Below are positions 22,581 through 64,000 of a DNA stretch of 64,000 nt, one piece after another. Location of the stretch: the IMG/VR virus record IMGVR_UViG_3300050509_000438, positions 14,416-78,415 of that record; one strand, 5' to 3'. This DNA comes from a virus. Position numbers and translations under genes: made by a program. Numbering within the stretch: the stretch's first letter is position 1; each line of letters opens with the position of its first letter. The notes under the pieces were generated by a model that saw only the letters and a program-made list of their open reading frames with translations, did not search any database and was not told where the DNA came from.

Positions 22581-22907
22581 TTAGTTGCCTTCCTTTTGAT
22601 TTGACTGAACAAGAGTCAAAGTATTTGGATTCCAAAATTGATTTGCAGTATCTGCCAGATACGCCAACTGGTATCCATCTAAGGTGTCATTGTAGGCTCT
22701 CCAGCTTTGCGCGTGGTCATCCATATAAATTCCTCCGATCTCTAAAAGTTCATCGCATTTAATGATGCACTGAATTGCCAGAAGAGGTTCTTTAAGACGA
22801 GCTTCGCCACTCATGTGCCCTTCCTCAACATCCGGATCAGTGATAGTAGCTAATACTTTCTTGTGGGTGATGATTCTGATGTGTAGTGATACGATTTCTA
22901 TTTTCAT
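22581..22907 (-). CDS. Hypothetical protein
   Basis: Start set at ATG 22907, which forms an ATGA overlap with the HAD gene stop. No motif recognised. Confidence 0.45.
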   Translation of the reverse strand: MKIEIVSLHIRIITHKKVLATITDPDVEEGHMSGEARLKEPLLAIQCIIKCDELLEIGGIYMDDHAQSWRAYNDTLDGYQLAYLADTANQFWNPNTLTLVQSNQKEGN

Positions 22908-23284
22908 AAATAAGAATTTTCTATAAACCATTCCTCTAATGCCATCCAATCCACATACGGCTTCTTGCCATCTTCCCGGATCAAAGGTACGCCAGCATTC
23001 TTATCGTCGATATTGCAATGACAGTAGACCTTCCGTGATCCTGTTTCATACTCTGGATTGCACATGACATATTTGAACTCTATCGAATTATTTCGAGCCC
23101 ACTCCTGTACGTCATCCAGCAAATGACCTGTGCGCATGGTCATCAGGATGAACTCATGACCGGCGTTTCTGAGCTTATGAAGAACCTCCACGGCATGCGG
23201 TACAGTTGGCCCCACGTAAGGATTCCAGTTCTCTACAAGCGTGCCGTCAAAATCAAGTTCTATGAGTTTACGCGTTGTCACCAC
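22904..23284 (-). CDS. Small HAD-superfamily phosphatase (candidate GmhB-equivalent, heptose-1,7-bisphosphate phosphatase)
   Basis: 126 aa. HAD motif I (LIELDFDGTLV) is present. Directly downstream of, and overlapping, the heptose kinase gene. The substrate assignment is contextual only. Confidence 0.5.
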   Translation of the reverse strand: MVTTRKLIELDFDGTLVENWNPYVGPTVPHAVEVLHKLRNAGHEFILMTMRTGHLLDDVQEWARNNSIEFKYVMCNPEYETGSRKVYCHCNIDDKNAGVPLIREDGKKPYVDWMALEEWFIENSYL

Positions 23285-24185
23285 TCACCTCCTCCCATCT
23301 CTTGATCAGTTCTTCCTTCGTTATTGCATGGACACCAGCATAACGACATACCTCTGAAGCCGCAATGTTGGCAAGACTAACTCCGTCCTGAATGTCCTCA
23401 TTCAAAGCAGTCATCATACCCACTACTCCCGTTACGGTGTCACCGGCACCACAGACATCCACGATATTAATTTTGTGTCCATTGGTCCGTCCAGCCATAC
23501 CTTCGTTGTTGGTGTACATGATCCCAGACTCACCTTGCGTTACGATGAACCATCGACTATATAACTCCGGCCATTGTGGCATCGCATCAAACTCCTTTTG
23601 GTTACACTTGATTACAGTAGATCCCTTGAATCTAGCGTAGTCCCTCTTCGCGTCCACCACCACTGGGATCTTATAATGTAGCGAAAGTTCCATGATCGCG
23701 TTGATCAACGAGTCAGAGAGACACCCCTTATGGTAATCAGCAAGCACAATGCAGTCGTACTTACCCATCGTGGCTTCTAGTTCCTTCCACCAGGAATACG
23801 CGGTGAACGGCAGCCACTCGATCTGCATGGGATCGATCTCGTCGTCGATGCGCAGCAGGTGATGACTTCCGGACATGATGCGCATCTTCTTGGAATGCTT
23901 GCCTTCATGGGTTTTGATGTTGTCGTTGTACTCCATAGGCCAGCAGTAGCCGCCGTTGCTATGGATGCAGAACAAGTCTGTCGGCACGCCCATGCCCACA
24001 AGATTCATAAACACATTGCCAGCTCCACCGGGTCTGCTGAAGGCGATCTGTTGATTGACCACTGGCACAGGTGCCTCCGGGCTGATGCGGTCGACGGAGC
24101 CGAGAATGTAAGCGTCTTCGATGAAATCACCGATGACTGCTATCTTGAGTTCGGCGGCACGAGTGAGGAGGGCGTGGAGGTTCAT
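23268..24185 (-). CDS. hldA: D-glycero-beta-D-manno-heptose-7-phosphate kinase (HldE N-terminal-domain / HldA type)
   Basis: KIAVIGDFIEDAYILGSVDRISPEAPVPVV...RPGGAGNVFMNL closely parallels the E. coli HldE kinase domain (GDVMLDRYW.G...RISPEAPVPVV...RPGGAANVA). Ribokinase-family VCGAGDTVTG sits near the C-terminus. Confidence 0.85.
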   Translation of the reverse strand: MNLHALLTRAAELKIAVIGDFIEDAYILGSVDRISPEAPVPVVNQQIAFSRPGGAGNVFMNLVGMGVPTDLFCIHSNGGYCWPMEYNDNIKTHEGKHSKKMRIMSGSHHLLRIDDEIDPMQIEWLPFTAYSWWKELEATMGKYDCIVLADYHKGCLSDSLINAIMELSLHYKIPVVVDAKRDYARFKGSTVIKCNQKEFDAMPQWPELYSRWFIVTQGESGIMYTNNEGMAGRTNGHKINIVDVCGAGDTVTGVVGMMTALNEDIQDGVSLANIAASEVCRYAGVHAITKEELIKRWEEVSGDNA

Positions 24186-24738: not shown

Positions 24739-25191
24739 TTAATCTTCATACGCTTTCAATACCATTTTAATAATGTCCGAACTGCTGATCTTATCACCAA
24801 GCCCATTGGCTGTAGGCTTGTAGAACACCATTGTCGCATGGTGCTGACCGATGACCGGTTTGCCGAGCCATTCGGCACCTTTGACGAGGTAGTCGGGCGT
24901 TGCCTTCGCGATCTCATACAATAGTTCTTCATCACTGTCTATACCGATAACTTCGTCGATCATACTGCGGTTACCACACTGCATTGCCATCAGGTTGATT
25001 TTCCGGATCGCGTACGGGATGATCGGCAGTCGTGAGTTACCTTCTTTAATACGTTCGTCTTCATCGAGCATCACTATCACTTTGCCTTCGGGTCCTGCGA
25101 GAAGGCGGCATTGATTTAATGCGTTAAAATGCCCCACATGGAGCAGGTCTAATTTACCGGTGGTGATCACTTTAGGCATAAGCTGTGGCAC
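24739..25191 (-). CDS. hldC: D-beta-D-heptose-1-phosphate adenylyltransferase (HldE C-terminal-domain / HldC type)
   Basis: Cytidylyltransferase-fold signature TTGKLDLLHVGHFNAL, then IVMLDEDERIK, PDYLVKGAEW and ISSSDIIKMV. These are collinear with the HldE adenylyltransferase half (NGVFDILHAGH...VAVNSD...LVKGGDY...STTNII). Confidence 0.75.
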   Translation of the reverse strand: MPQLMPKVITTGKLDLLHVGHFNALNQCRLLAGPEGKVIVMLDEDERIKEGNSRLPIIPYAIRKINLMAMQCGNRSMIDEVIGIDSDEELLYEIAKATPDYLVKGAEWLGKPVIGQHHATMVFYKPTANGLGDKISSSDIIKMVLKAYED

Positions 25192-44193: not shown

Positions 44194-44678
44194 TCACTTT
44201 TAACGAGGTTTGCCATAACGGTGCCTGTGTTGAAGGTGTGAAGGAATTTTACATTGACAATTTTTATGGCCAAACCGCCGTATCGCTGGCTGATGCCATC
44301 GATGCTGGAGCTGACCTAAAATATTTAGGAGGCTACGGCTACGGCGACGGCTACGGCTACGGCGACGGCTACGGCGACGGCTACGGCTACGGCAACGGCG
44401 ACGGCTACGGCAACGGCTACGGCGACGGCGACGGCTACGGCAACGGCAACGGCGACGGCTACGGCGACGGCAACGGCAACGGCTACGGCGACGGCGACGG
44501 CTACGGCAACGGCAACGGCGACGGCTACGGCGACGGCGACGGCGACGGCAACGGCGACGGCGACGGCTACGGCAACGGCAACGGCGACGGCTACGGCGAC
44601 GGCGACGGCGACGGCAACGGCGACGGCTACGGCAACGGCTACGGCGACGGCAACGGCGGTTGGCCCAAACCATCATGA
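44178..44678 (+). CDS. Gly-Tyr-Asp-Asn repeat protein (GYGDGYGNG...)
   Basis: 166 aa: an ordinary 50-aa N-terminal domain followed by 111 codons of strict G-[Y/D/N] alternation. The stop overlaps the recombinase ATG (ATGA). Confidence 0.55.
   Translation: MDNRLITFNEVCHNGACVEGVKEFYIDNFYGQTAVSLADAIDAGADLKYLGGYGYGDGYGYGDGYGDGYGYGNGDGYGNGYGDGDGYGNGNGDGYGDGNGNGYGDGDGYGNGNGDGYGDGDGDGNGDGDGYGNGNGDGYGDGDGDGNGDGYGNGYGDGNGGWPKPS
44328..44660 (+). repeat. Perfect hexanucleotide coding microsatellite (GGC-NAC)n, N = T/G/A
   Basis: 333 nt read directly. Every Gly codon except the first (GGA) and the last (GGT) is GGC, and every second codon is TAC, GAC or AAC. Nested longer tandem units are visible. Confidence 0.95.
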
Positions 44679-45223
44679 CCCTAGGCTACGCCCGCGTGAG
44701 CCGCGAAGACCAGGACCTCACCCGCCAGATCGACGCCCTGCAAAAGGCTGGCTGTGATAAGCTCTACCTCGATAAGATGTCGGGCGTCAAAAACTCCCGG
44801 CCTGAGCTTGACAAGCTGCTGATCGACGTGCAGCCAGGCGATACTGTGGTGGTCCATAAGCTCGACCGCCTGGGCAGATCTACTATCCACCTGCTGAGCA
44901 CCGTCACGGGCTGGCGCGATCGCGGGATACACTTCAGATCGCTCAGCGAGAGCCTGGACACCTCTTCGCCCCATGGCCGGATGATCTTTACGGTGATGGC
45001 AGCCTTTGCTGAGCTCGAGCGCGACATGATCTCGGAACGCACCAGGCATGCGCTCAGTGTGAAGAAGAGCAATGGACAGCGTATGGGGAGGCCGGAGGCT
45101 GACAGGACGCAAACTAAATCTGAGATTGCGGCTATGGTTGAGCGTGGTATGTCAGATGCCGAGATCATATCAGAGCTCAGGATGGGGAGAAGTACTTATT
45201 ATAGGTTGAAGGCTAAGCTATGA
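44675..45223 (+). CDS. Small serine recombinase (resolvase/invertase family)
   Basis: MTLGYARVSREDQDLTRQ...DKMSGVKNSRPELDKLL...GDTVVVHKLDRLGRS...FRSLSESLDTSSPHGRMIF...FAELERDMISERT, plus a C-terminal HTH (MSDAEIISELRMGRSTYYRL). Confidence 0.85.
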   Translation: MTLGYARVSREDQDLTRQIDALQKAGCDKLYLDKMSGVKNSRPELDKLLIDVQPGDTVVVHKLDRLGRSTIHLLSTVTGWRDRGIHFRSLSESLDTSSPHGRMIFTVMAAFAELERDMISERTRHALSVKKSNGQRMGRPEADRTQTKSEIAAMVERGMSDAEIISELRMGRSTYYRLKAKL

Positions 45224-49679: not shown

Positions 49680-49920
49680 AAACAGAAACCATCTTCATCG
49701 TAGCGATAGTCTTCGCTATATGCACCCCTTGTAAAGACAATAGAAAACATGCAATTGCGTGATGAGATTCAGGAATTAAAAACAAAATGTGACTGCCAAT
49801 ATTGAAACTATTTCAAACCATATGACTCAGCAGTTTTATAACTGCACATGCGAAGCGATGGCAGCCAGAGGCACGCCATGTCTTTGTTTTGCATGTAACA
49901 ATATTAAAATACCAAAAACT

Positions 49921-50520
49921 ATGATTGACATCATCCGCGATGAGCTTACCTCTTCCAGGTATGTGCTCACTGAGTTTATTAAAAACGAAGCCAACCTGCA
50001 GTCCATCCAACGCGCCGCAGACATTATGATCACCTGCCTGAAGAACGGCGGTAAGATCATCGCCTGCGGTAACGGCGGTAGTATGTGCGATGCCATGCAC
50101 TTCGCCTCTGAGCTTACCGGGAAGTACAGGAAAGACAGACCTCCTATTGCTGCGCTGGCAATCGGGGATCCTGCGCATTTGAGTTGTGTGGGGAATGATT
50201 ATGGGTACCGGGAAGTCTTTGGACGATACGTTAAGGCGCACGCAAAGACCGGGGATGTGTTACTGGCGCTAAGCACAAGTGGTAATAGTGATAACATAAT
50301 CATTGCTTCACATGCAATGCACATAAAGCAATGTGCGGTTGTCTACATCACAGGTAATGACAAGAACAGTTTGGTTCATAAGACGGCACTTATTGGTGGA
50401 GGTGACTGCTTGATTGAAATACCTCATTCTGGATCGGCAGATAGAATTCAGGAGGTTGGATTGATTGTTATACATGTTTTGTGTAACTTGATAGAAAAAG
50501 GCATCTATGAAGAAGATTAA
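49921..50520 (+). CDS. gmhA: Phosphoheptose isomerase GmhA (SIS domain)
   Basis: MIDIIRDEL...IQRAADIM...GGKIIACGNGGSMCDAMHFASELTGKYRKDRPPIAALAI.DPAHLSCVGNDYGYREVFGRYV...GDVLLALSTSGNS.N...ADRIQEVGLIVIHVLCNLIE is collinear with E. coli GmhA over its whole length. The track ORF extends 44 codons further upstream (49789). Confidence 0.85.
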   Translation: MIDIIRDELTSSRYVLTEFIKNEANLQSIQRAADIMITCLKNGGKIIACGNGGSMCDAMHFASELTGKYRKDRPPIAALAIGDPAHLSCVGNDYGYREVFGRYVKAHAKTGDVLLALSTSGNSDNIIIASHAMHIKQCAVVYITGNDKNSLVHKTALIGGGDCLIEIPHSGSADRIQEVGLIVIHVLCNLIEKGIYEED

Positions 50521-51217
50521 ATTAACTCATGGAGAATATGCTCTTGTTGATTCTGATGATTCTGATGATTTTGACTTTTTGAGTCAGTATACATGGAGTT
50601 TGTGTATAAACGTAAAAAATAGAACAAACCGATATGCAGCCACAAATATCGCAGGCAAAACCATTCACATGCACCATCTTCTTTTGAAGAAAAAGAGCGG
50701 ATTTGTTAGAGACCATATAGATAAAAATGGACTCAACAATCAACGGAAAAATCTTAGATATCTCACTATCTCTCAAAACAACTTTAATCAAAAGAGAAGA
50801 ACCAATACGCGAACTGGTATCACTGGAGTTTATTTTGAAGATAATTCATATGTAGTTAAAATATCTTTTAAAGGGAAAAACATCCATATAGGTAGATCCA
50901 AATCTCTCATGGTAGCCAAGAAGTTAAGAAAAGATGCAGAGAAAAAATACTATCCGAATATTAAGATTGGTAAGGAAACAGATATTGTGCATTACCCCAA
51001 GCCTCCAAAAATTCCACTGCATGAACGACAACCAAATAAGAATAGAACTTACAAATACAAAGGGGTATATCCACATGCTTTGAAATGGAGAGCAGCAATA
51101 AGTAATGGTAAAAAGGGAATGAAGTACTTAGGATTATACAGCACACAGGAGGAAGCTGCAAAAGTATATATACAAGCATTCAAAGAAAAACATGGAGTGG
51201 CTCCATATTCTATTTGA
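50507..51217 (+). CDS. HNH (HNH_3-type) homing endonuclease with AP2 DNA-binding domains
   Basis: HMHHLLLKKKSGFVRDHIDKNGLNNQRKNLRYLTISQN (HNH_3). TGITGVYFEDNSYVVKISFKGKNIHIGR and YKYKGVYPHALKWRAAISNGKKGMKYLGLYSTQEEAAKVY are AP2 repeats. Visibly AT-rich compared with the flanks. Confidence 0.8.
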   Translation: MKKIKLTHGEYALVDSDDSDDFDFLSQYTWSLCINVKNRTNRYAATNIAGKTIHMHHLLLKKKSGFVRDHIDKNGLNNQRKNLRYLTISQNNFNQKRRTNTRTGITGVYFEDNSYVVKISFKGKNIHIGRSKSLMVAKKLRKDAEKKYYPNIKIGKETDIVHYPKPPKIPLHERQPNKNRTYKYKGVYPHALKWRAAISNGKKGMKYLGLYSTQEEAAKVYIQAFKEKHGVAPYSI

Positions 51218-51934: not shown

Positions 51935-52287
51935 CCGGACCTGAAATCCAAATCCGTGAGAAGATCAAAGGCCAGGAGCAGCGCATTGCCAACTGCCAGA
52001 AGAAGATCGAGGCTCTGAATAAGGAACTCGAAGACTATCTGGCCAGCGTGCCTCCGAAGCCTGAGCCATTCGCAGTATTGCCAAAGGAGGATCACCATGA
52101 TTACTGCGGTAAGATTCTGTATCATTCAGAGAAGGCAGCCCATGCAGCGCGGAAGCTGATCAATCGTGATCTCAAGAAGGTAGGTAAGCCTCCGCTCAAG
52201 CGGGCGTATCTGTGCGATAAATGTGAGGCGTGGCACTTGACTACAGTTGAGAGTTGGATACCTTATCCGGAAATGGGTGGCAGGTAG
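51931..52287 (+). CDS. Hypothetical protein (C-terminal CxxC...WH Zn-like motif)
   Basis: 118 aa containing YLCDKCEAWHLTT. Last gene of the plus block; converges on and overlaps the GT2 gene end. Confidence 0.5.
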   Translation: MTGPEIQIREKIKGQEQRIANCQKKIEALNKELEDYLASVPPKPEPFAVLPKEDHHDYCGKILYHSEKAAHAARKLINRDLKKVGKPPLKRAYLCDKCEAWHLTTVESWIPYPEMGGR

Positions 52288-53096
52288 TTCATGATTTGAT
52301 TGCGTAGGTGAGGGTAGCGATCAGCACACCATTCACGTATGTACACCGGCAGTGGCCCAGGAATAGGCACAATGTCATCTCCCTGGAATGGGAACTTACT
52401 CCAATCGAAGACTTCACCGATGCGTGAGTCCATGCCGAGGCCAAAGATATCAACGAGCATATTCTTAGCCTTTACCACATGTTTAACAGGATCTCTAATA
52501 TAACCGGCGTGGTAAATTTCGATCGCATCTTCACGTCCGAAGACATGAACACTATTTGATGCAACATGCTCACCATCATCGTATGAACGACAATGTGATT
52601 TCGCTAATCGGATTACCTCTGTTGAACAAGGTTTCCGTTCTTGAATCACATTTAGCATTGATAAAGGATCTCGCCAAGCATTGTATCTCTTACAAACATA
52701 TGCTTCAACATCATGTTCGATTGCTTCTCGAATGACCGGAAAGCTCCTTGGATAGATGATCTCGTCTGCCTGAAGCAGAACTGTCCAGTCACAACCATTA
52801 GCTTCGAGTATCCCCATGGCAACATTTTGAAAATAGCTCAATTTTTGCCTACCCATCTGAGCGTTCCAATCACTATAAGTTATCTCAAATAATTCACAAT
52901 GGCCTATGGCATTAGAATGAATTAATTCTTCCACAGCGCTTTTTGTTCCATCATTCCCGCCAGCTAATACCACAACATTGTCACACAAGTCCAGCAAGCA
53001 CTGCATTGACTCACGAAAATTGTAGTCTTGACTTATTCCATTCCATACAAATAGACATCCGCCGAGTTTTTTCATACTTTGCGCGCTACGATCCAA
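52263..53096 (-). CDS. Glycosyltransferase (GT2-like) candidate
   Basis: 277 aa. The N-terminal CLFVWNGISQDYNFRESMQCLLDLCDNVVVLAGGNDGT has the layout of GT-A/GT2 enzymes. Sits within the sugar-modification island. Confidence 0.45.
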   Translation of the reverse strand: MDRSAQSMKKLGGCLFVWNGISQDYNFRESMQCLLDLCDNVVVLAGGNDGTKSAVEELIHSNAIGHCELFEITYSDWNAQMGRQKLSYFQNVAMGILEANGCDWTVLLQADEIIYPRSFPVIREAIEHDVEAYVCKRYNAWRDPLSMLNVIQERKPCSTEVIRLAKSHCRSYDDGEHVASNSVHVFGREDAIEIYHAGYIRDPVKHVVKAKNMLVDIFGLGMDSRIGEVFDWSKFPFQGDDIVPIPGPLPVYIREWCADRYPHLRNQIMNYLPPISG

Positions 53097-53602
53097 AAAC
53101 TATACCTATCCTCACCTATATCGAGCCCGTGATCAACCAGATCAAACATCTTTGGCAGATGCTCACCTTTGAAGTCCTTGCCTTCGCCACAGAAAGCGCG
53201 CCGGAACCAGAACATAAATGGGTCATACTTTATGTCAATCATGTGCTCGGGATTGGATTTGTTGTCGTAATAATCACCATCTGGAAGATAGAGCACGAGA
53301 TGACCGCCACTTTTAAGGACATGATACCATGTAATTACTGTTAGATATTGGTCACGGCAATGTTCCAAAAAATGCGATGAAAATATTGTATCAAACTTGT
53401 CTCTCTTAACAAACTTGATCTTATCCCAAAATTCATCGTGAATGCCAACTATATCAACACCCGGGAGAGAGCGGCCATCGAACCCGATCGCTTCAGGTAT
53501 GATCTTATCACCGCCGCATGCAACATCGAGAACCTCGCCCGTAATGTACTTCATCACCTGTGGCAAGTCTCTAACCTTCGCCGCTTCACTCATGTACGCC
53601 AT
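53072..53602 (-). CDS. Class I SAM-dependent methyltransferase
   Basis: Motif I is GEVLDVACGGDKIIPEAIGFDG, with later FDTIFSSHFLEH and LKSGGHLVLY. Confidence 0.65.
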   Translation of the reverse strand: MAYMSEAAKVRDLPQVMKYITGEVLDVACGGDKIIPEAIGFDGRSLPGVDIVGIHDEFWDKIKFVKRDKFDTIFSSHFLEHCRDQYLTVITWYHVLKSGGHLVLYLPDGDYYDNKSNPEHMIDIKYDPFMFWFRRAFCGEGKDFKGEHLPKMFDLVDHGLDIGEDRYSFWIVARKV

Positions 53603-54203
53603 AAGCCCATTGTTTAGTTTTAAGAATTGATTTTATGCGTTCATATTCATCGGCGCCCCATGGAGATCTCCACCCGAACCAGGCGCTTCCGTTCCACTTC
53701 TTGTGATAGTCTGGGAAGACAATTGCATTCATCCCTGGCAGCATCTCAGGCTTCCACAGTGATCGGTGAGCCTCCGGGTCATTGTTATCATCCTCCGCCA
53801 TTCCAAACAGATCGGTAAGAGGCGTGAAGATGATCTGTTTGTGAGAGAGCATAATCATTGTACGGATGAGTTTCATACCATCCTCCAGTTTCAAGTGCTC
53901 AATACCATCAGAACAGATTGCTACATCGAATGGATTAATGACCTTCGCATCGATAATCCAGTCCGGACAAGCAAGTTGTAGCACATCCATTTGCCTGAAA
54001 AACTGTTGCTCCTCCTTATGATCAAGTTCTCTCGGCAGCACATCCACATAACACCGCTTACTAAAACCGAGCTTCGGAGTGTTCGGTGCGAACGCACACA
54101 TCAGATCAATCATCGACTTGCCTTCGGTGTCTCCACAGATCGCTCTCATCACGTCCATGTATACTTCGATGTTGCCTACTACGTTTGGGAAGGTGAGGGT
54201 CAT
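53586..54203 (-). CDS. Methyltransferase-like protein (degenerate class I fold)
   Basis: MIDLMCAFAPNTP...FDVAICSDGIEHLKLEDGMKLIRTM has the class I MTase post-I/II/III layout with a weak motif I. Confidence 0.4.
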   Translation of the reverse strand: MTLTFPNVVGNIEVYMDVMRAICGDTEGKSMIDLMCAFAPNTPKLGFSKRCYVDVLPRELDHKEEQQFFRQMDVLQLACPDWIIDAKVINPFDVAICSDGIEHLKLEDGMKLIRTMIMLSHKQIIFTPLTDLFGMAEDDNNDPEAHRSLWKPEMLPGMNAIVFPDYHKKWNGSAWFGWRSPWGADEYERIKSILKTKQWAYGVHE

Positions 54204-55618
54204 GATAAATAATATCCCAGTTGATCAATAATCAAATCAATATCCCATGTAATGCATGGTGGTCGTTGTACATTAACTACACAATCTTTGCCAACCTCCG
54301 ATAAAACATCGTGATAGCATCCTGCCTTCGCTACTGGACAGGGCCTCTGTAGTACAAATAAGTTACTCCGATCATAATACCGATACTTTGGATCAACAGA
54401 TCCAAAAAACACAATGCTCTTCACACCACAGGCCATCGCTATTTGAGCACAACCCGAGTCGATCCCGATAAAGTACGAAGCCCCAGCAATGACATAAGCG
54501 AGCACTGGCTCTGTGGGAGTGTTGATGTGGACAGCAGCATCTCGCCGTCCGCCGATCTGAAACACCTTGTATTTTGTGTGGGCCTCGATCCATTTAACCA
54601 CCTCCGCCCAATCCACCCCATGCACATTCCTGTGCGCCATTGCCGTATCATCCACATGCAGCACAATATAGTCATCGAAGAGCCGTGTCTCCGCCGTGGG
54701 CGCGAAGTTAAGCTTAGGATTACGCAGCGTATACTCTGTGATCCCCGCCGCCTTGTAATACGACTCCAGCACCAGCTTCCTTGGCTCTACCTCGTAAGCC
54801 ATGTCCAGGTTGATGATCCGGTAGCCGCCGAGGTCTTCCTTCAGGTGCGGCGCGTACTCGACCTGGAAATAGTGCTTCTCGAAGAGGTTATAGTACGGAG
54901 GCAAGCAGTCAAGGATCACCCGGTAGCCGTCGTTATGCAGGCGCTCCAGCAGCGGCTCAGCCATGATCACGTCGCCCATGGCCCCTGTACGGTGTACGAT
55001 CACAGGCTCGCGGTAGGGCTGATGGAAGAGGGCGTGGAACCCGAACGTCTTCTGCCTGGGAGCATGCATCTCGAAGCTGAAGCGGTGCGCGAGGTCTTCA
55101 GGAGCGAACTTGTAGCCGTATCGCTCTTCCAGGATCTTCCGGTACAACCGGCAGATCACCTCGTCCTCCGGAGCATATACACCATTATATGCCACAAACT
55201 CATCCGTACCCATGGCATGCATCAGCCGATAGCTCCGCATGCTGAACCCACCATTGCCCACGTTACGTCCATCCCTGTAGTTCCACGGCGCGCCGATGTA
55301 GTCATAGTCCATGAACTCGTCAGTCCATGCGCTGGAATCAAGCACATACCCGTCAAACTGGATTAAAAGAACATGTGAAGTTTTAATATGCTTCCATAGC
55401 TCACAACAAACAAATTTATTGTAGTTTAACCAATCAAGCTTTTCAATAAGCACACACTTGAAGTCATCGTCCTGATATTCTACATCAGTGAAAAATAAAG
55501 TTTCGGCAGGATGTATTTGTTCAAGAGATTTTTTGATTGATGAAATAGTTGGCCCATAATCTCTGGTTGTTATTGCCACCATGGTAATATCCTTTAGGTG
55601 CTTCATGCGTATTGCCAT
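54200..55618 (-). CDS. Fusion of DUF5672-like domain and GT9 (ADP-heptose heptosyltransferase-like) domain
   Basis: 472 aa. The N-terminal half has YDYIGAPWNYRDGRNVGNGGFSMRS (DUF5672 signature). The C-terminal half has VIVHRTGAMGDVIMAEPLLERL and FIGIDSGCAQIAMACGVKSIVFFGS (GT9 signatures). Confidence 0.65.
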   Translation of the reverse strand: MAIRMKHLKDITMVAITTRDYGPTISSIKKSLEQIHPAETLFFTDVEYQDDDFKCVLIEKLDWLNYNKFVCCELWKHIKTSHVLLIQFDGYVLDSSAWTDEFMDYDYIGAPWNYRDGRNVGNGGFSMRSYRLMHAMGTDEFVAYNGVYAPEDEVICRLYRKILEERYGYKFAPEDLAHRFSFEMHAPRQKTFGFHALFHQPYREPVIVHRTGAMGDVIMAEPLLERLHNDGYRVILDCLPPYYNLFEKHYFQVEYAPHLKEDLGGYRIINLDMAYEVEPRKLVLESYYKAAGITEYTLRNPKLNFAPTAETRLFDDYIVLHVDDTAMAHRNVHGVDWAEVVKWIEAHTKYKVFQIGGRRDAAVHINTPTEPVLAYVIAGASYFIGIDSGCAQIAMACGVKSIVFFGSVDPKYRYYDRSNLFVLQRPCPVAKAGCYHDVLSEVGKDCVVNVQRPPCITWDIDLIIDQLGYYLS

Positions 55619-55797
55619 TTAAAACCCCTGAAAGAATCTCGCTTACCTTTGCAACACTTAATAATGTCAACAGACCAAGCAATTCTAGCACGTTCAATGT
55701 CTGCAATAGCATCCCATGTTTTAACCACATCAGATGCTTCCTTTTCCTCTTTACATCGGTAGCATACCTTGCTGATCACTACTGCTGTCTCAATCAT
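55603..55797 (-). CDS. Small protein resembling a homing-endonuclease DNA-binding (NUMOD-like) remnant
   Basis: 64 aa ending in ...IIKCCKGKRDSFRGFKWQYA, similar to the sI..c..gk...agGf.W.y tail of NUMOD/IENR modules (weak). Confidence 0.3.
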   Translation of the reverse strand: MIETAVVISKVCYRCKEEKEASDVVKTWDAIADIERARIAWSVDIIKCCKGKRDSFRGFKWQYA

Positions 55798-56150
55798 ATC
55801 TTCGCTATCAAATCCGTCATCCTCATAATAAGAACTTCCTTGCCGTCAACTTCATGTCTCACGCCGGCATACTTGCTATGCAGCACGCGATCACCAGGCT
55901 TGAAGTCAACCTTCGGAGGCTCGACGCGAGCCGGGATCGGCACGTTGAAGAACTCGCAGACCGCGATCAGTACCCACAGGATCTTGGTGAGCGTGGGATC
56001 GTTATTGAGACCGGGGCCAATAGCGATGATCGTTCCTTGCGCGGGGCGCAGGCGTTCTTTGCTGGTATCGGGTACGATGATACCGTTGATGTCATCAGGA
56101 GCTGCATCAGGCTCGATAATTACGCGGTCTTCGAGGGGGAGTAGGGGCAT
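55794..56150 (-). CDS. groES: GroES/Cpn10 co-chaperonin homolog
   Basis: LPLEDRVIIEPD...NGIIVPDTSKE...GTIIAIGPG...KPGDRVLHSKYAGVRHEVDGKEVLIMRMTDLIAKI shows full-length Cpn10 collinearity with an internal insertion. Confidence 0.75.
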   Translation of the reverse strand: MPLLPLEDRVIIEPDAAPDDINGIIVPDTSKERLRPAQGTIIAIGPGLNNDPTLTKILWVLIAVCEFFNVPIPARVEPPKVDFKPGDRVLHSKYAGVRHEVDGKEVLIMRMTDLIAKI

Positions 56151-56155
56151 GTGGA

Positions 56156-56539
56156 TTATAGTTTAATTGGTAGTTCTTTTAAGCTTACGGCATAAAAGGC
56201 ATTCTGGAGTTGGTGAATGTACTTCAGGTCATCACTCAACACATGGATAAGCGGATTACAATCCATGCCTAATATCCACTCACCATTCTCGTAAAAAATG
56301 ATTCTAAAGTATGAGAATTCTGGGTAGTGATAGATTTTTAATGATTCTTTCTGCTTAAGAATCCATCCATTATTGGTGAGAATGTCTTCGGTGAGAGGGA
56401 CACCATGCATCATTGAGTCTGCTCCATCCTCTTCGATGGTTGCCAACTGCGCTATCATCATAGGGTAAACCTGCTGAGGCTTTTGTGTATAGTAGTTGAA
56501 TACCCAGTTATTGATGCGTAGTTCTTTTGAATGAATCAT
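56156..56539 (-). CDS. Hypothetical protein
   Basis: 127-aa ORF. Confidence 0.5.
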   Translation of the reverse strand: MIHSKELRINNWVFNYYTQKPQQVYPMMIAQLATIEEDGADSMMHGVPLTEDILTNNGWILKQKESLKIYHYPEFSYFRIIFYENGEWILGMDCNPLIHVLSDDLKYIHQLQNAFYAVSLKELPIKL

Positions 56540-56940
56540 AACTTATTGATGATGTACCTTTTCGCATCTTCGATATTCTGATTTCCATTGCCATCATAGC
56601 CACCTGTGGAAAACGGTGAATGGTTATAACCTTCATCAATTCTCTTCATCAGTGCTTGCTTCGTGGTTTCTTCAGGACTCCATTGTCCTTCAAATCCATA
56701 GCAAGAGCAGTGTGATCCGTGGACCTCATACAACTTCCCTTCTTTTTCAAAGAGAAACCACGATGAAGAGTCGCAACCATAATCACCAACAGATTCGTAT
56801 GCGATAAGTATTTTACACTTACGCAACGACTTCTTTAATTCTTTATCTACTTGCTCATACTCAGCATTACCATACTGGGAGACAATGTGAGCCTTCACCT
56901 GTGTGGTATTCATGTCCTTTAAATCTTCTAGTGCTATCAT
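56536..56940 (-). CDS. Hypothetical protein
   Basis: 134-aa ORF with 4-nt overlaps on both sides. Confidence 0.5.
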   Translation of the reverse strand: MIALEDLKDMNTTQVKAHIVSQYGNAEYEQVDKELKKSLRKCKILIAYESVGDYGCDSSSWFLFEKEGKLYEVHGSHCSCYGFEGQWSPEETTKQALMKRIDEGYNHSPFSTGGYDGNGNQNIEDAKRYIINKL

Positions 56941-57773
56941 AACTCCTTCATCATTTTATCAACCAAATAAACCAATCCTTCCTGAAATTGAAAATCCCAC
57001 CCATTGGGTCCGATCGGCTGCACATTCGGCGCGAAGTCACAGACTTCCAGGAGACGATGCGACTTTAACCCTTCAGCGATCGCGTAGCACATACTCTGGT
57101 TACCGATAAAAAACTTGCAGCACTTGATGGCGATCGCAAGCTCAAGGAAGTTATCCACGACCAGCAAAGGTAACTCAAATCCCCAATCCTTCTGGAACTT
57201 CTCGTGTTCCTGCGGCAGCCCACAGAACATCAGTTGCTCCTTGTATTTCTCCATGAACCAGTAGGTCAGGTACGGCTTGTTGTAGCGCGAGGTGCGGTTG
57301 ATGAGAACTTTCTGATTGGCTTTGTTGTGGTACCATGATGGGAAATTATGCCACGGCACATGCAACCATGGCTTACTCAAATCGCACTGCGTATCCGGGT
57401 AGCAGAACCCGAGCCATCGGTGGATTGAGCCGTAGGGCATGCCGATGAATTTGGTCCTGTGAACATCGAGATCTACAACGATCTCCTCTCCCTTCCAGAT
57501 GTTGAAGCTATTAACGTATGCCTGGGCCTCGATAAGGGGCTTCATCATGTCGTAGGCATGCTGCGGAAACATGGACTCATAAGGATGCTCTGCGCCCTGG
57601 TAATAGAACGCCTTCTGGTCAAGCCACATGTAGATGTCGGCCTTGGCGCCCAGGTTCTCGCAGGCGGTTTTGACGGCGGGGAGGAACGAGATCAGGTCGC
57701 CTGAAGGACCCGATGACTTGAATGATATGGTTTTCATTTCCATGTTCTGTTTGATAGCACAGATCTGATACAA
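56937..57773 (-). CDS. GT-B glycosyltransferase, GT9-like (second heptosyltransferase candidate)
   Basis: ISFKSSGPSGDLISFLPAVK (N-terminal GT9-like) and CKFFIGNQSMCYAIAEGLKSHRLLE (the f-I-G-n-D-S-G...A-x-A-l-g pattern). Weaker than in 54200-55618. Confidence 0.4.
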   Translation of the reverse strand: MYQICAIKQNMEMKTISFKSSGPSGDLISFLPAVKTACENLGAKADIYMWLDQKAFYYQGAEHPYESMFPQHAYDMMKPLIEAQAYVNSFNIWKGEEIVVDLDVHRTKFIGMPYGSIHRWLGFCYPDTQCDLSKPWLHVPWHNFPSWYHNKANQKVLINRTSRYNKPYLTYWFMEKYKEQLMFCGLPQEHEKFQKDWGFELPLLVVDNFLELAIAIKCCKFFIGNQSMCYAIAEGLKSHRLLEVCDFAPNVQPIGPNGWDFQFQEGLVYLVDKMMKEL

Positions 57774-58351
57774 CGCCGTGATACACTATACATAGAAGCT
57801 AATTTGTTTTGAGAAATAAGCCCCTTATTGGCTCGTATTTCTCGCACATCCCATTCTGTTAATTTAGCTACTCTACTATTTCTGATGTTCACCTTTCTAA
57901 TCACCCACCTAACATTACCTGGCTCATAATTCCCATCGTTATTAATCCGATCAATATCAAGTCCAGGAATATAATCTTCAATGGTATCATTATAGAAATT
58001 AGTAAAGCTTTGCATCCAACGATCACACACTTTTATTCCTCTGCCACCGTAAATGTGATATGATTTATGTTTTGGGTTATTAACCCTTTGCTTCATGCTG
58101 TTCCATACTTTTTTCAGAGAATGATTCTTGATTCTCTGCTTTTGATTTTTACACCCACAACTGGTTTTTCGACCAGAAAGTAAATATGAGGATGGGATAG
58201 AGACAGCTGCCCCACAGATACAAAAACATGTCCATGCAGGCATCCTGCGAATAGTACCCGATCTGGAACCAACCTTTAGATGGCCAAATGTCTGATCCTT
58301 CAAGTCTTTTAATTGCCCCATAAAATGCCTATCTTCGTATTTCATGCACAA
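57734..58351 (-). CDS. Homing-endonuclease-like protein (HNH-type, phage family)
   Basis: WTCFCICGAAVSIPSSYLLSGRKTSCGC...HKSYHIYGGRGIKVCDRW...GLDIDRINNDGNYEPGNVRWV is a pattern I recognise from free-standing phage HNH endonucleases. AT-rich. Confidence 0.55.
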   Translation of the reverse strand: MCMKYEDRHFMGQLKDLKDQTFGHLKVGSRSGTIRRMPAWTCFCICGAAVSIPSSYLLSGRKTSCGCKNQKQRIKNHSLKKVWNSMKQRVNNPKHKSYHIYGGRGIKVCDRWMQSFTNFYNDTIEDYIPGLDIDRINNDGNYEPGNVRWVIRKVNIRNSRVAKLTEWDVREIRANKGLISQNKLASMYSVSRRCIRSVLSNRTWK

Positions 58352-58727: not shown

Positions 58728-59066
58728 ATGAGAGACCCACAAGAAATTGCAACAGTTGAGCCTAAGTCAACTTACAGAATTCCTACGTACAAAGTTACCA
58801 ATGAAGGATTGGTAGATGGTGATGGATGCGCATTGGACTTCTGCAAAGGCAATAAAGAAGATGAATCTGTTCCACGTCAGGAAGGTGTTTTTACTGAAAC
58901 CCTGATCGCCGCCGCAAAAAAATATCTCGAAGAGAACAACGTCGGAGACCTTGCTACACGCGAGACCTCAATGGCTATTACCAAGCTTGATGAAGCGCTG
59001 CTCTGGATCGGTAAGCGCGCCGCAGATCGGCAGAGACGTGGTGTACAAGGCACTTACCAGAAATGA
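58728..59066 (+). CDS. Hypothetical protein
   Basis: 112-aa ORF with a conserved-looking C-terminal helix (SMAITKLDEALLWIGKRAADRQRRGVQGT). Confidence 0.55.
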   Translation: MRDPQEIATVEPKSTYRIPTYKVTNEGLVDGDGCALDFCKGNKEDESVPRQEGVFTETLIAAAKKYLEENNVGDLATRETSMAITKLDEALLWIGKRAADRQRRGVQGTYQK

Positions 59067-59708: not shown

Positions 59709-59880
59709 AGAGATTGGTGATCATCTTCCCAAGAGCAGTGACAACTGCTGCCCCAATAACCCAGCCTTTATCGACCTCCATGCCTGCAAATGTCGCGGTG
59801 AGTGTTGTACCCATGATCAGGATCGAGTCTCCCAGCTTGCGCCACGCTGGCGGTGTCGGTGAGTAGTAATTCTTCATCAT
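59677..59880 (-). CDS. Small membrane protein (holin-like) downstream of endolysin candidate
   Basis: Start at ATG 59880, forming an ATGA overlap with the endolysin-like stop. MMKNYYSPTPPAWRKLGDSILIMGTTLTATFAGMEVDKGWVIGAAVVTALGKMITNLF has two hydrophobic helices. Confidence 0.45.
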   Translation of the reverse strand: MMKNYYSPTPPAWRKLGDSILIMGTTLTATFAGMEVDKGWVIGAAVVTALGKMITNLFTETAESPPK

Positions 59881-60479
59881 ATCATTTGATCTTCGTTGAA
59901 TAATGCGTAGGAAAAAGGCTTGGCATAAAACTCCCATGACCGGGCACCAACATTGTACCATACAGCATGCTCCTTGTCGTCCTGTAGCACCTGGCATCCT
60001 GCTGAGAATGCACCGACCTTCTCCACGTTCGTATCGTGACGAGTAGTGTGTCCGTTGACTCCTTGAGAGTCTTTATAAATCTTCCCTGTGAGGTCGAGCA
60101 CGCCATCAGAATCGAAATCACGATAGCCTGAGAATACCCCAGGACCTGACTGAACCATAGCCGCGTATTTGCCATTATGCAGCCCCGGCTTCCAGCATCC
60201 AGCATGGAACCCGGCAGCAACAATGAACGTGCCTTTGTCGTTACCGAGCTTATCCTTGAGGTACACCAGTCCGGGCTTGGTAGTGCCTTTAAAGATCAGG
60301 CAGTGCTTATTAAGAAACACATCACACCAGGCAACGCCGATCAGATCATTGAACTCATTGACCGTTGTATCCTTCGACCGGATTCCGAAGTAGTTCACTT
60401 CATATTTACCGGTAAGGAATGGATACTTGTTGTCAGAATATTTATCCTGAATGAGCGCGTAGGTGATGGTTGTGTTCAT
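59877..60479 (-). CDS. Cell-wall hydrolase (endolysin) candidate
   Basis: 200 aa. GTTKPG...FIVAAGFHAGCWKPGLHNGKYAAMVQ...YRDFDSDGVLD...GVNGHTTRHD...FSAGCQVL is a pattern I associate with phage peptidoglycan peptidases (unverified). Flanked by small membrane proteins. Confidence 0.4.
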   Translation of the reverse strand: MNTTITYALIQDKYSDNKYPFLTGKYEVNYFGIRSKDTTVNEFNDLIGVAWCDVFLNKHCLIFKGTTKPGLVYLKDKLGNDKGTFIVAAGFHAGCWKPGLHNGKYAAMVQSGPGVFSGYRDFDSDGVLDLTGKIYKDSQGVNGHTTRHDTNVEKVGAFSAGCQVLQDDKEHAVWYNVGARSWEFYAKPFSYALFNEDQMI

Positions 60480-60883
60480 GCTTCAATTATAGTGGCCAGT
60501 ACAAATCCTGTTTGATCCTCGTAGAATGGCTCAAGGCTGATCTTGATGCTGAACTCTGTCTTGTCTTTTTTAAGACCACGGAGCGACATATCCGTAGTGC
60601 CCATGTTTCTGAACTTAGGGATCTTACTGTAATTAGAAAGATGCGCGTCGTGGCGTGCTCGATACTCTTCCGGCATCAGGTCCGTTATTTTCTTCCCCTC
60701 TATTTCATTGTAGATGTAGCCGAATATATCGTTGATGCGCTTGGAGGCAAAAACGATTAGCCCGGTGGTCATCTCCACTACAATGCAGGGGGCCTGATCG
60801 AGGATCTTCTCATGGATCGTGTTCCTGTCTCCATGAACAAGTTTGAACTTCAGGTCAGCGAGACGTTGTTTGATGTCATCCAT
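60476..60883 (-). CDS. Stand-alone PAS domain protein, FixL (heme-PAS) like
   Basis: ILDQAPCIVVEMTTGLIVFASKRINDIFGYIYNEIEGKKITDLMPEEYRARHDAHLSNY...LRGLKKDKTEFSIKISLEPF is collinear with the FixL heme-PAS (ILMPEPDRSRHDSYISRY...TGKRRDGTTFPMHLSIGEM), including the position of the proximal His. Confidence 0.7.
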   Translation of the reverse strand: MDDIKQRLADLKFKLVHGDRNTIHEKILDQAPCIVVEMTTGLIVFASKRINDIFGYIYNEIEGKKITDLMPEEYRARHDAHLSNYSKIPKFRNMGTTDMSLRGLKKDKTEFSIKISLEPFYEDQTGFVLATIIEA

Positions 60884-62576: not shown

Positions 62577-64000
62577 TTAGCGATTTTTATTAATGGCTTC
62601 AAGCCTCTTAGGGGTCAACACACCCCATCCTGTTTGCATCATAAACTTCTTCTTTCCACGTTCACGGCCTTCTGCGTATAGCTCTTTCAAACGCTCAATA
62701 CGCTGCTCTGGCTTCTGATAGCGCCAGCCCGTGTTGATGTATCCCTGCACCGCGCGGGCACGCTCCTGGCCAACGAAAGTGGCAAGCTGCTCAAACTCCT
62801 TGGGGCTGAGCTTCATGTCAACGCCGCGCACCTTGAGATTCCTGGTGGGCATCGCCGGTAGCCACTCCGAGTTGAAGTTGTCATCTCTCCACGCCTCATA
62901 CAATTTCCATTTGTAACTGTCCGTGTCGACGTTCTTGAATTTGGTAGGGTCGAACAGGTAGTAGGTGAATTTGTTGCGACCTTCTGGGTTCCCGGTGACC
63001 TTCTCTCCCCAGAGGTTGACCTTCGGCGGGAGCTGGCCACCAAGGAAGACCTTGGCTTTGAAGGTTGCGGCGAGGCGATCGGTGAAGTCCCGGTTGTAAG
63101 TATCGCGTATGTACTCGTCGCTGGATTTGCTGATTGTGGCCAGTGTGTTCGGTAACACAATGCTGGATACGGCCCCTGTGGTCTCGATGGCCCATTGCTG
63201 GGTCTCATAACCACCCTGGTCTTGTAAAGCATTTAGGAAAGAATTTGTACCCTTTAGGAAAGATTGTTCCAGGGATGAACTCAACACCCGGGGAGCGGAA
63301 GTCACCATCTCCTCCATGAATCCCGGCATCTGCTGCTCATCCTTGAGCGAACGGAAATAATTGTTGGTGTAGTTGTTGAACAGGATCCCGACAACGCCCA
63401 TCTTTTTATAAGCCACCCAGGTATCATCATCCTTGACGCCCCACCCCTGACCAGTAAGTCCGCGAGCGAGTGCGTCGACGTTCATGGAAGCCGGCGGCAC
63501 GGAGTCGTACTGGATGTTGCGACCCTTCTTATCCTTGTCATCCTCCCATGAGAGCAGGCCCATGGAGAAGAGTTGCTTGGCCACAGTCATGATGATCGCA
63601 CCTACCACAGCCTTACCGATCAGCACGGCGCCATCGCGGCGGTTGCCTTTCATAATACTGTACACTCCGCGCGCGAACGTGAGAGGAGGCAGCGCATAAT
63701 CGAATGTCTCGATTACGATATTGAGCGGGGTCTTGACGTATGGTATTTGGGATTTCAGCAAAACTTTAACAGGCCCTCCGATTAACGGAATGTCTTGCAC
63801 TAAATTCAAAAAGTCAGTAATCGCTTTCTGAATCTTTTTGCTGAGCTCAGTCTCCTGTTGGAATGTGGCCTCTTTACCAGCCTTATCGATCTCAGTCGCA
63901 GATGTCTCATCAGGAAACATCAGGAACTTAATCCGGTCATCGCCCGTGAGCTTCTTTTTGTCAGCTATCTCCATGGCCCTGGCAAGTTCCGATGCCCGCC
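62577..64000 (-). CDS. Large hypothetical (virion?) protein, 5-prime end probably beyond the right edge
   Basis: The track ORF starts at 63974, but the frame stays open to position 64000 (own reading upstream of that Met gives ...RASELARA-MEIADKK). At least 465 aa. No motif recognised. Confidence 0.55.
   Translation of the reverse strand, partial: RASELARAMEIADKKKLTGDDRIKFLMFPDETSATEIDKAGKEATFQQETELSKKIQKAITDFLNLVQDIPLIGGPVKVLLKSQIPYVKTPLNIVIETFDYALPPLTFARGVYSIMKGNRRDGAVLIGKAVVGAIIMTVAKQLFSMGLLSWEDDKDKKGRNIQYDSVPPASMNVDALARGLTGQGWGVKDDDTWVAYKKMGVVGILFNNYTNNYFRSLKDEQQMPGFMEEMVTSAPRVLSSSLEQSFLKGTNSFLNALQDQGGYETQQWAIETTGAVSSIVLPNTLATISKSSDEYIRDTYNRDFTDRLAATFKAKVFLGGQLPPKVNLWGEKVTGNPEGRNKFTYYLFDPTKFKNVDTDSYKWKLYEAWRDDNFNSEWLPAMPTRNLKVRGVDMKLSPKEFEQLATFVGQERARAVQGYINTGWRYQKPEQRIERLKELYAEGRERGKKKFMMQTGWGVLTPKRLEAINKNR

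Follow-up and report, generated by a model that had tools for sequence, protein, structure and literature searches.

Here we describe a glycan-assembly gene cassette in a 64,000-nucleotide stretch of viral DNA (positions 14,416 to 78,415 of the IMG/VR record IMGVR_UViG_3300050509_000438; hereafter “the window”, with coordinates counted from its first letter), which belongs to a ~78.3-kb metagenomic contig recovered on several occasions. At the center of the cassette is a 472-aa protein in which a DUF5672 domain is joined to a GT-B domain with a four-cysteine (Cys4) finger. This fusion is phage-specific and prevalent in a large uncultured phage clade, and it is set in a conserved cassette of four glycosyltransferase (GT) domains and two methyltransferases with a dedicated supply of ADP-heptose. 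Features shared with the bacterial autotransporter heptosyltransferases (BAHT) point to protein heptosylation, and our leading, still tentative reading is that the cassette O-glycosylates virion (or other) proteins with a methylated, heptose-containing glycan. A phage heptosyltransferase system of this kind was nowhere described in the literature we searched.

Followed along the minus strand from 57773 to 52263, the region contains nine co-oriented, tightly packed open reading frames (ORFs), with eight junctions that overlap by 4–25 nt and one 5-nt gap, a packing consistent with a single operon. All nine are present where the original prediction, made from the letters alone, had placed them, as are the motifs it quoted (VLDVACGG; YIGAPW...GNGGFSMRS; GAMGDVIMAEPL; GIDSGCAQIAMACG). 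The first gene of the conserved cassette encodes a 278-aa GT9-fold (GT-B) glycosyltransferase (56937..57773) and is followed by a lineage-specific insertion of four ORFs (134 aa, 127 aa, a 118-aa GroES/Cpn10 and 64 aa; 55603..56940). Next come the two halves of the fusion, namely the DUF5672 GT-A domain (residues 1–195; 55034..55618) and the GT9-type, heptosyltransferase-like GT-B domain (residues 196–472; 54203..55033), the latter including the Cys4(+His) finger (54254..54340). The cassette is completed by a 205-aa divergent class I methyltransferase-fold protein (MT2; 53586..54203), a 176-aa class I S-adenosylmethionine (SAM)-dependent methyltransferase (MT1; 53072..53602), predicted to act as a sugar O-methyltransferase, and a 277-aa GT2-like GT-A glycosyltransferase, the last gene (52263..53096). 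All of these enzymes are predicted to be soluble, acidic and without a transmembrane segment. As single sequences, the 277-aa, 205-aa and 278-aa proteins returned nothing significant, and family profiles or structure models were used for them instead; against PDB sequences, the fusion, the 278-aa and the 277-aa proteins likewise gave nothing meaningful when searched singly.

The N-terminal half of the fusion carries DUF5672 (PF18922) over residues 65–195 (E 4.8e-19, 69 bits against a gathering cut-off of 24.4), as do all of the best 120 fusion homologs, and the stretches Q87-x-D89-G, YDYIGAPW, N-x-GNGGF and E151-D152 are invariant in it. An AlphaFold2 (AF2) model of the fusion, built from 56 homologs (pLDDT 92, pTM 0.84), gives this half a GT-A fold closest to GT6/GT8-type enzymes (Foldseek: BoGT6a 4e-5, TM 0.58; glycogenin ~1e-4; GlyE 1e-6). 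When one genome per prokaryotic species was scanned, bacteria, mostly Beta- and Alphaproteobacteria, were found to have the DUF5672 half alone. The neighbors of these stand-alone genes encode GT2, GT4, GT9, epimerase/dehydratase, SIS, methyltransferase and Bac_transf (initiating sugar-transferase) proteins, and because the bacterial genes are thus surrounded by glycan-assembly genes, we read DUF5672 as a glycan-assembly glycosyltransferase. Some cyanophages also have a stand-alone DUF5672 gene, adjoining sugar-modifying genes, and DUF5672 domains are found in multi-GT proteins of giant viruses. The domain is scarcely mentioned in the literature searched.

The C-terminal half had been called a GT9 heptosyltransferase, which was borne out for the superfamily, but not for a generic lipopolysaccharide (LPS)-type enzyme. 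Its match to the Pfam GT9 family (PF01075) scores 20.2 bits, below the cut-off of 22, and covers residues 373–412 only, with a precomputed match in about a third of the best 120 homologs. The family profile, searched against PDB sequences, retrieved TibC first (2.5e-3) and then GT9 enzymes including WaaC, and in Foldseek comparisons TibC (1e-11) was followed by WaaC, WaaF and 3tov (2e-8 to 2e-7). Key residues are R210-x4-G215-D216 (the catalytic-base motif), T325, H329/R330 and G385-I-D387-S388-G389; among fusion homologs, G215, D216, G385, S388 and G389 do not vary, and conservation of D387 is 90% or higher. We take the GT-B motifs to correspond to D13 and D261 of WaaC. In a pairwise alignment to the full TibC sequence, which is of modest reliability, D110 of TibC falls on D216, within T-G-x-x-G-D, and T226 on T325. 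The family itself is small, with only 437 clusters recovered by an exhaustive search of the GT-B half alone against 1.84 billion representative proteins, and its architectures comprise DUF5672+GT-B, stand-alone GT-B of ~270–300 aa, GT2-like+GT-B of ~510 aa and longer fusions; in P0277, the N-terminal domain matches the GT2 domain of chondroitin synthase (1e-4).

Structurally, the resemblance to the BAHT enzymes (TibC, Aah; TIGR04414; PDB 4RAP/4RB4) lies in a short N-lobe of ~100 aa, an extra N-terminal domain and a Cys4 finger at the same point of the C-lobe. In the fusion, finger residues C427, C434, H436, C446 and C455 are invariant in 56 homologs, and the finger is placed between the final strand of the C-lobe and the C-terminal helix, at the same site as the Fe(III) finger of TibC. 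The latter (Cys-339/342/358/370) is needed for dodecamer assembly and for recognition of beta-helical substrates (PMC4358343). Among the 130 family representatives whose tail is complete, 127 show four or more Cys across the finger window, and 38 start with C-x2-C like TibC. The GT-B half is acidic (net charge −7) and the finger neutral. Differences from the BAHT enzymes include the finger spacing (C-x6-C-x11-C-x8-C in the fusion vs. C-x2-C-x15-C-x11-C in TibC), the DUF5672 GT-A domain where TibC has a flattened beta-barrel at its N-terminus, and the absence of the adjacent autotransporter substrate gene typical of TibC, no autotransporter family being found among the window ORFs. Moreover, the fusion is phage-encoded, unlike the bacterial TibC and Aah, and is known here from sequence and model.

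Assigning the BAHT or the LPS subtype from sequence models alone was tried and rejected, as all models score similarly low: the window fusion reaches 17.2 bits with TIGR04414 (equivalog cut-off 200) and matches Hep I and Hep III models weakly, 37 of the 56 family members match this model weakly (best E 8.5e-8), and NCBIfam heptosyltransferase models are matched by 27–45 of the 56, all far below cut-offs. With the GT9 LPS-core enzymes (WaaC, WaaF, WaaQ; PF01075), both the fusion C-half and the 278-aa protein have in common the GT-B fold and the R/K-x4-G-D motif, and the fusion also the D-S/T-G motif (N-Q-S in the 278-aa protein); here, too, the genes are accompanied by those of an ADP-heptose donor pathway. 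These enzymes, however, are without the fusion's Cys4 finger and truncated N-lobe, the window proteins stay below their Pfam/NCBIfam cut-offs, and LPS-core systems include other LPS-core genes, none of which is present here. As modeled, the GT-B half of the fusion is best described as a diverged GT9-superfamily lineage that shows BAHT-like structural features and stands outside both curated families. The component classes are each known, and automated annotation already calls some uncultured-phage proteins “Aah/TibC” or “RfaF”.

That the GTs and both methyltransferases would act in one pathway is indicated most strongly by natural (Rosetta-stone) fusions, which join them in single polypeptides. 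These include P0238 (DUF5672 + GT-B + MT1-like; 7e-45), P0245 (DUF5672 + GT-B + MT2-like; 2e-51), P0311, P0323, P0330, P0345, P0351 and P0357 (X + GT-B + MT1-like), P0315 (278-like GT9 segment + ... + GT-B; 4e-12) and P0233 (DUF5672 + GT-B, followed by a domain that other relatives encode separately, as family 10; 2e-100). Family 10 (~250 aa) occurs once or in up to three tandem copies within the cassettes of some relatives (L009, L010, L021), and constitutes residues 471–719 of P0233, C-terminal to DUF5672-GT-B. It had no match among PDB sequences, and its motif DCxxFxNELDLLxxR presumably resembles that of GT17.

The 278-aa protein, flagged beforehand as a second, weaker GT9-like gene, has no family match in Pfam, PHROG or NCBIfam, and none of its 109 homologs has a precomputed Pfam domain, but GT9 structures are the best Foldseek matches of its AF2 model (pLDDT 94.4; GT-B fold; 3tov 7.5e-9, WaaC 1e-7, WaaF 4e-6, TibC 2e-5). 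A match of the family profile to quinolinate synthase among PDB sequences was judged spurious, the structure prediction having settled the fold. The catalytic-base motif “KSSxxGD” has an invariant D26 and an invariant or nearly invariant G25, the C-lobe has “FIGNQS”, with N-Q-S in place of D-S/T-G, and the protein can be aligned to the fusion GT-B half over a stretch bounded by the GD and FIGxxS motifs (hhalign, E 1.2e-4, probability 56%). Its only clearly cellular homolog, from Methylovulum (37% identity), is encoded between GT4 and GT9 genes near lptD/surA, and tblastn against deposited phages gave nothing.

For the 277-aa protein, which itself has no Pfam match, the GT2-like assignment is suggested by its family, whose profile matches the GT2 enzymes GmaR (7.8e-4) and SpsA (9.3e-3) in the PDB, and by its orthologs, 15 of 40 matching PF13704 and 6 of 40 PF00535 (E<0.01). 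Its motifs are “GGNDGT” and the DxD-like “LQADE”, with D49, T51 and Q109-A-D111-E112 invariant. MT1, likewise as foreseen, is a class I SAM methyltransferase (PF13489 Methyltransf_23, 30.5 bits, cut-off 27; PF08241 Methyltransf_11, 26.6 bits, cut-off 21.2) with VLDVACGG as motif I. MT2, described earlier as a degenerate methyltransferase-like gene, fails in Pfam (14 bits, E 0.089), but its family profile matches Hen1-type 2′-O-methyltransferase domains (3jwi 7.7e-5, 3jwg 3.7e-4), and MT2 and MT1 are paralogs (hhalign probability 84%). Motif I of MT2 is altered (DLMCxxAP, glycine loop), with acidic and His residues invariant; that the family is conserved and is fused to a GT-B domain in P0245 suggests that this divergent MT2 is functional.

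A donor for these enzymes could be made by the phage itself. The window encodes a GmhA-like sedoheptulose-7-phosphate isomerase for step 1 (49789..50520, +; NF001628 4.1e-67, TIGR00441 1.6e-48, SIS_2 4.3e-23), an HldE domain I-type heptose-7-phosphate kinase (23268..24185, −; TIGR02198 1.6e-55, PfkB 6.3e-13) and an HldE domain II-type heptose-1-phosphate adenylyltransferase for step 4 (24739..25191, −; TIGR02199 8.7e-11, CTP_transf_like 1.2e-5), all with scores below the equivalog cut-offs. Three steps of the four-step heptose-nucleotide pathway previously proposed are thereby matched, and the phosphatase step (step 3) is plausible only: the candidate GmhB substitute is a 126-aa minimal HAD-superfamily phosphatase (DFDGT; 22904..23284, −; Hydrolase_6 E 1.2e-3), whose gene overlaps the kinase gene and whose closest PDB sequence is the hypothetical protein 2obb (4.3e-15), not GmhB-like. 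No epimerase family, HldD included, was found in any window ORF. TibC uses ADP-D,D-heptose, the donor that the phage pathway would make without HldD, and we infer ADP-heptose to be the donor of both the fusion C-half and the 278-aa protein. In 9 related loci, HldE-like genes lie 2.5–5.3 kb from the fusion.

The presence in the same window of GmhA, the HldE-type kinase, the HAD phosphatase and the HldE-type adenylyltransferase supports the view of the original prediction that this is a self-contained system for a probably O-methylated, heptose-containing glycan, a view reinforced by conserved synteny and by the natural domain fusions. By itself, a phage-borne heptose pathway is not new. Cultured cyanomyophages (P-SSM2, S-SSM7, S-CAM1 and others) have a PfkB-type kinase beside a nucleotidyltransferase, and a phosphoheptose isomerase, and virome surveys count phage heptose-nucleotide genes among auxiliary metabolic genes. 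Although the cyanomyophages share these heptose genes, no cultured phage was found with a DUF5672-GT-B fusion or with the 278-aa enzyme.

The fusion is confined to phages and marks a large, environmentally widespread uncultured clade of ~78-kb podophages. More than 3000 homologs were found in public metagenomes, the best 120 all of ~470 aa and of the same architecture, with many on 77–82-kb contigs. In the one-genome-per-species scan, the full fusion was found only in a 78-kb contig labeled “Cyclobacteriaceae MAG”, in reality a phage of this clade. None was found in cultured phages, where tblastn matched the DUF5672 half in cyanophages only, and megablast of the island against deposited phages gave nothing. 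At 21–23% identity (best E 4e-29), the portal is distantly similar to its counterparts in the Cellulophaga phages phi38:1 and phi40:1 and in Flavobacterium “elemo” podophages. A 1322-aa tail protein encoded beyond window position 1 (L085 17074–21042) has the C-terminal domain of the crAss muzzle protein (PF25729), which links the ~78-kb clade architecturally to crAss-like podophages. Given this domain and the portal similarity, a Bacteroidota host is likely. No integrase was detected in the window, so the phage is probably lytic; the only recombinase is a small one of the resolvase/invertase serine type with a helix-turn-helix (187 aa, 44660–45223, +; 4.7e-44), which could drive an invertible segment rather than integration.

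Synteny was counted over 83 related loci. The 278-aa gene is next to the fusion in 55 of them, on the same strand in 54 of these 55 and at a median of 190 bp upstream, and a GT2-like gene follows the fusion on the same strand in 43. Directly after the fusion comes MT1 in 28 loci and MT2 in 20, and the order GT9-like, fusion, methyltransferase(s), GT2-like is kept in relatives down to 36–55% identity. Of 66 related loci used for the distance to the terminase gene TerL, 36 have the cassette 2.3–5.2 kb upstream of TerL, on the same strand and with the portal following, so that in most relatives it heads the late packaging/structural module. The complement varies, with MT24/CmcI-type methyltransferases in some relatives and one to three copies of family 10 in others, as expected of a diversifying glycan. 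A portal-query scan of viral contigs to place the cassette among the clade's core genes found nothing, a single-protein query retrieving close relatives only, and it is therefore conserved synteny that carries the core-gene argument.

Not all of the nine ORFs belong to this conserved set. The 118-aa GroES protein (55794–56150, −) was correctly recognized (Cpn10, 6.7e-16, with a ~25-aa insertion between two Cpn10 halves), but its functional embedding in the cassette was rejected, as it is not syntenic in relatives. Orthologs near the fusion were counted in 1/83 loci for the 134-aa ORF (phrog_21421/8792), 2/83 for the 127-aa ORF (phrog_10066), 14/83 for GroES and 2/83 for the Cys-containing 64-aa ORF, and the GroES copies there occupy variable positions on both strands. 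Since GroES and the three small ORFs are not syntenic in relatives, they are a local, lineage-specific insertion outside the conserved cassette. The 64-aa ORF was also considered, and rejected, as a member of a ~73-aa family found at the same position in relatives. Elsewhere in the window, a 272-aa protein (18871–19689, −) ends in a Cpn10 half (8.3e-7), and relatives have full GroEL+GroES pairs (e.g., L002 15395–17361), the clade as a whole carrying several chaperonin-related genes. Homing-type endonuclease genes flank the sugar genes: an HNH gene (57734–58351, −; phrog_374, 1.3e-51) overlaps the start of the 278-aa gene, and an HNH_3+AP2 gene (50507–51217, +) directly follows GmhA. Together with a NUMOD3 protein within the cassette and Cas12f1-like TnpB genes nearby in relatives, they give the impression that mobile elements target these sugar genes.

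With regard to the acceptor, several observations favor a protein. TibC, a Ser O-heptosyltransferase, is the best solved relative by both profile and structure; a near-universal Cys4 finger occupies the site of the TibC iron finger; and the N-lobe, like that of TibC, is reduced to ~100 aa and has a further N-terminal domain packed against it. The enzymes are soluble and without a transmembrane segment, and no lipid-carrier machinery was found in the window, none of its ORFs belonging to polyprenyl-phosphate transferase, flippase or ligase families. The cassette is usually beside packaging/structural genes, and no base-hydroxylating enzyme was found in the window or the adjoining 8 kb. Under this reading, all steps of the phage-encoded assembly system would take place in the cytoplasm. 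The TibC-like Cys4-finger GT-B domain, with D216 as catalytic base, would transfer the first heptose onto a Ser/Thr hydroxyl of a phage structural protein, most plausibly the Ser/Thr/Gly-rich tail fibers. The fused DUF5672 GT-A domain would then add the next sugar, the 278-aa GT9-fold and 277-aa GT2-like enzymes would extend the chain, and the two class I methyltransferases would O-methylate and cap the terminal sugars. The outcome would be a methylated heptose-based oligosaccharide on the virion surface, which might shield the particle from proteases, self-adsorption or recognition, or tune receptor binding. Two fiber genes lie at the start of the window. One encodes a 1627-aa protein (3203–8086, −) with 23.6% Ser+Thr and repeated GGTG-type fiber motifs, and the other a 677-aa tail fiber (781–2814, −) that unites Big_4 and glycine-rich domains with a carbohydrate esterase of the SASA type, a combination suggestive of an acetylated polysaccharide as receptor.

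Precedents among other viruses also favor a protein acceptor, namely chlorovirus A064R/A061L, the mycobacteriophages and the DUF5672-bearing giant-virus GTs. In chlorovirus PBCV-1, A064R (GT-GT-O-methyltransferase) and a second O-methyltransferase, A061L, act on the capsid glycan (PMC9614988). A064R is a cytoplasmic multi-domain GT-GT-methyltransferase, an architecture repeated in the fusion relatives P0238 and P0245, and the two O-methyltransferases are SAM-dependent and modify a terminal sugar of the virion-protein glycan. The likeness is one of architecture, and PBCV-1 has a eukaryotic host, an N-linked glycan and rhamnose, whereas the glycan here would be heptose-based, on a putative acceptor. 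In mycobacteriophages, subunits of the capsid and tail tube are glycosylated by phage-encoded GTs, and virions are shielded as a result (as cited in PMC12619734). The acceptors there are reportedly C-terminal Ser/Thr-rich tails, and the probable capsid protein here has no such tail. Both the enzymes and the sugars of the mycobacteriophages studied by Freeman et al. in 2023 are reportedly not heptose- or GT9-based.

A number of observations nonetheless weigh against this reading. Of the sugar-binding residues of TibC, only T226 is retained in the same pairwise alignment; with the same modest reliability, K230, R286 and W305, together with P300 at the P300/S294 selectivity position, fall on H329, Y375, Q392 and D387 of the fusion, none of them conserved. 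The canonical GT9 “D-S-G” is kept in the fusion where TibC has “P-S-G”, the N-terminal beta-barrel of TibC is missing, and the Hep III, RfaQ, Hep I and TibC models score about equally weakly against the fusion GT-B family. Genomic context points the same way, as bacterial DUF5672 genes stand in polysaccharide-type clusters, the closest cellular homolog of the 278-aa protein is in an LPS-core-like GT4-x-GT9 cluster, and in this genome the cassette is ~35 kb away from the structural genes rather than adjacent to them. The probable major capsid protein, searched for acceptor hallmarks, proved to lack a Ser/Thr-rich tail, and the composition and repeats of the fibers are non-specific as acceptor evidence. 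Promoter and terminator scans, with models that do not cover Bacteroidota-type promoters, gave no more hits than shuffled sequence.

Several of these points would fit an unlikely, though serious, alternative in which the cassette remodels the host envelope, the enzymes adding heptose and methylated sugars to lipid A-core or a lipid-linked glycan at the inner membrane face, with superinfection exclusion, progeny kept off debris or receptor masking as the outcome. GT9 enzymes are classically LPS-core heptosyltransferases, matches to the Hep III, RfaQ, Hep I and TibC models are equally frequent in the fusion family, the fusion keeps WaaC-like R/K-x4-GD and D-S-G motifs, and the 278-aa enzyme is closer to WaaC, WaaF and 3tov than to TibC. 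The same is suggested by the Methylovulum homolog between GT4 and GT9 near lptD/surA, by the bacterial DUF5672 genes that adjoin GT2, GT9, SIS, Bac_transf and epimerase genes, by the same set of heptose-nucleotide genes in cultured cyanomyophages, listed as auxiliary metabolic genes in virome surveys, and by the carbohydrate esterase of the tail fiber, which makes a polysaccharide receptor probable. Surface conversion, however, is typical of temperate phages, and this phage is probably lytic (no integrase detected). Envelope remodeling would further call for functions that are missing here, as no initiating transferase, flippase, polymerase, ligase or GtrA/B-like membrane protein was found, nor a transmembrane segment in the cassette proteins, nor in the window the families of gtrABC-type O-antigen conversion (GtrA flippase, GtrB bactoprenol transferase, membrane GT, integrase). 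The gene order is kept across a deeply diverged clade, with the cassette usually heading the packaging/structural module, unlike sporadic “morons”, and the best structural relative of the fusion, together with the Cys4 finger, points to the protein-modifying BAHT branch.

Less probable again is a target inside the host cell, either a cytoplasmic host protein (of defense or translation) that is glycosylated, or a soluble methylated heptoside with a signaling or anti-defense role. The enzymes are indeed soluble, cytoplasmic and acidic, BAHT-type enzymes modify proteins, and anti-defense genes are close by. These are a 112-aa Acb2/Tad1-hairpin-like protein, a candidate CBASS/Thoeris signal sponge, encoded upstream of the cassette on the opposite strand (58728–59066, +), and, in the relatives L002/L003, a Tad2-like gene inside the glycan cassette (13123–13452). 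Four GT domains and two methyltransferases that vary among relatives would fit a diversifying surface oligosaccharide better, and neither a candidate target nor an export function is apparent.

Least probable of all, in our judgment, is DNA hypermodification, in which an extended, methylated heptose on a modified base would block restriction or CRISPR cleavage. Phage gene clusters have been shown to produce Hep- and di-Hep-5-hydroxymethylcytosine (5hmC) (10.1101/2023.12.21.572611). The clusters of Pyle et al. combine a 5mYOX or ThyA-like enzyme with T4 beta-GT-like or TarP/JGT-like GTs (10.1101/2023.12.21.572611), and share with the present system phage sugar-nucleotide synthesis with GTs, heptose and a C5-methylase in the genome. 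Nucleic-acid binding would in principle also be conceivable for the Cys4 finger. The replication module of the window encodes a C-5 cytosine DNA methyltransferase (32622–33668, +; PF00145 3.4e-21; the overlapping frame 32620–33654 has no match), but it lies ~20 kb away on the opposite strand. The enzymes and GT types of the 5hmC clusters were not found here: no TET/JBP-type 5mYOX, ThyA-like hydroxymethylase or hydroxylase is present among the window ORFs or in the 8 kb that precede the window, so that the base would offer no hydroxyl acceptor. The known DNA GTs are T4 beta-GT-like GT-B or TarP/JGT-like GT-A enzymes, whereas the best matches here are TibC/GT9 and GT6/GT8; the GT-B half is net acidic (−7), with a neutral finger; and the cassette is usually beside packaging genes, not in the replication module.

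Glycosylation of virion proteins thus stays our preferred reading, which is compatible with the order of acceptors first proposed (fibers, then the host envelope, with DNA least likely). A bolder and on balance doubtful version of it is that the fusion is the first viral BAHT-like protein O-heptosyltransferase, its finger-bearing GT-B-DUF5672 polypeptide hyper-heptosylating beta-helical fiber or other virion proteins with phage-made ADP-D,D-heptose while the partner enzymes build a diversifying, methyl-capped coat.

Beyond the cassette, the lysis region contains, unusually for a phage, a gene for a sensory domain: a 135-aa PAS-domain protein (60476–60883, −; PAS_9, 3e-7), whose gene neighbors those of small membrane proteins and an endolysin-like gene (59877–60479, phrog_33083). 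Ahead of both the lysis-like genes and the cassette, 62577–63974 (−) encodes the C-terminal part of a ~1653-aa protein (1664–1973 aa in relatives) that continues past the window end and has no family match; it may be a giant virion protein, either internal or ejected.

To our knowledge, virus-encoded virion glycosylation is well documented in giant viruses and only recently in a few mycobacteriophages, and the known settings of heptose have so far been LPS, autotransporter adhesins and, in a single instance, phage DNA. If the target of the present system is the virion, tailed phages of Gram-negative (probably Bacteroidota) hosts would build their own heptose-based glycan coats, DUF5672, which is widespread in bacteria, phages and giant viruses, would gain a function, and the BAHT lineage would reach beyond bacterial virulence factors. 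Were the BAHT-like reading true, the cassette would be the phage counterpart of chlorovirus/mimivirus capsid glycosylation; if the target is instead LPS or DNA, it would still serve a known strategy by a new enzymatic route. Both ADP-heptose and heptosylated structures act as innate-immune agonists and antigens. Such phages could therefore matter in phage-host-animal interactions, and their enzymes would be new tools for glyco-engineering.

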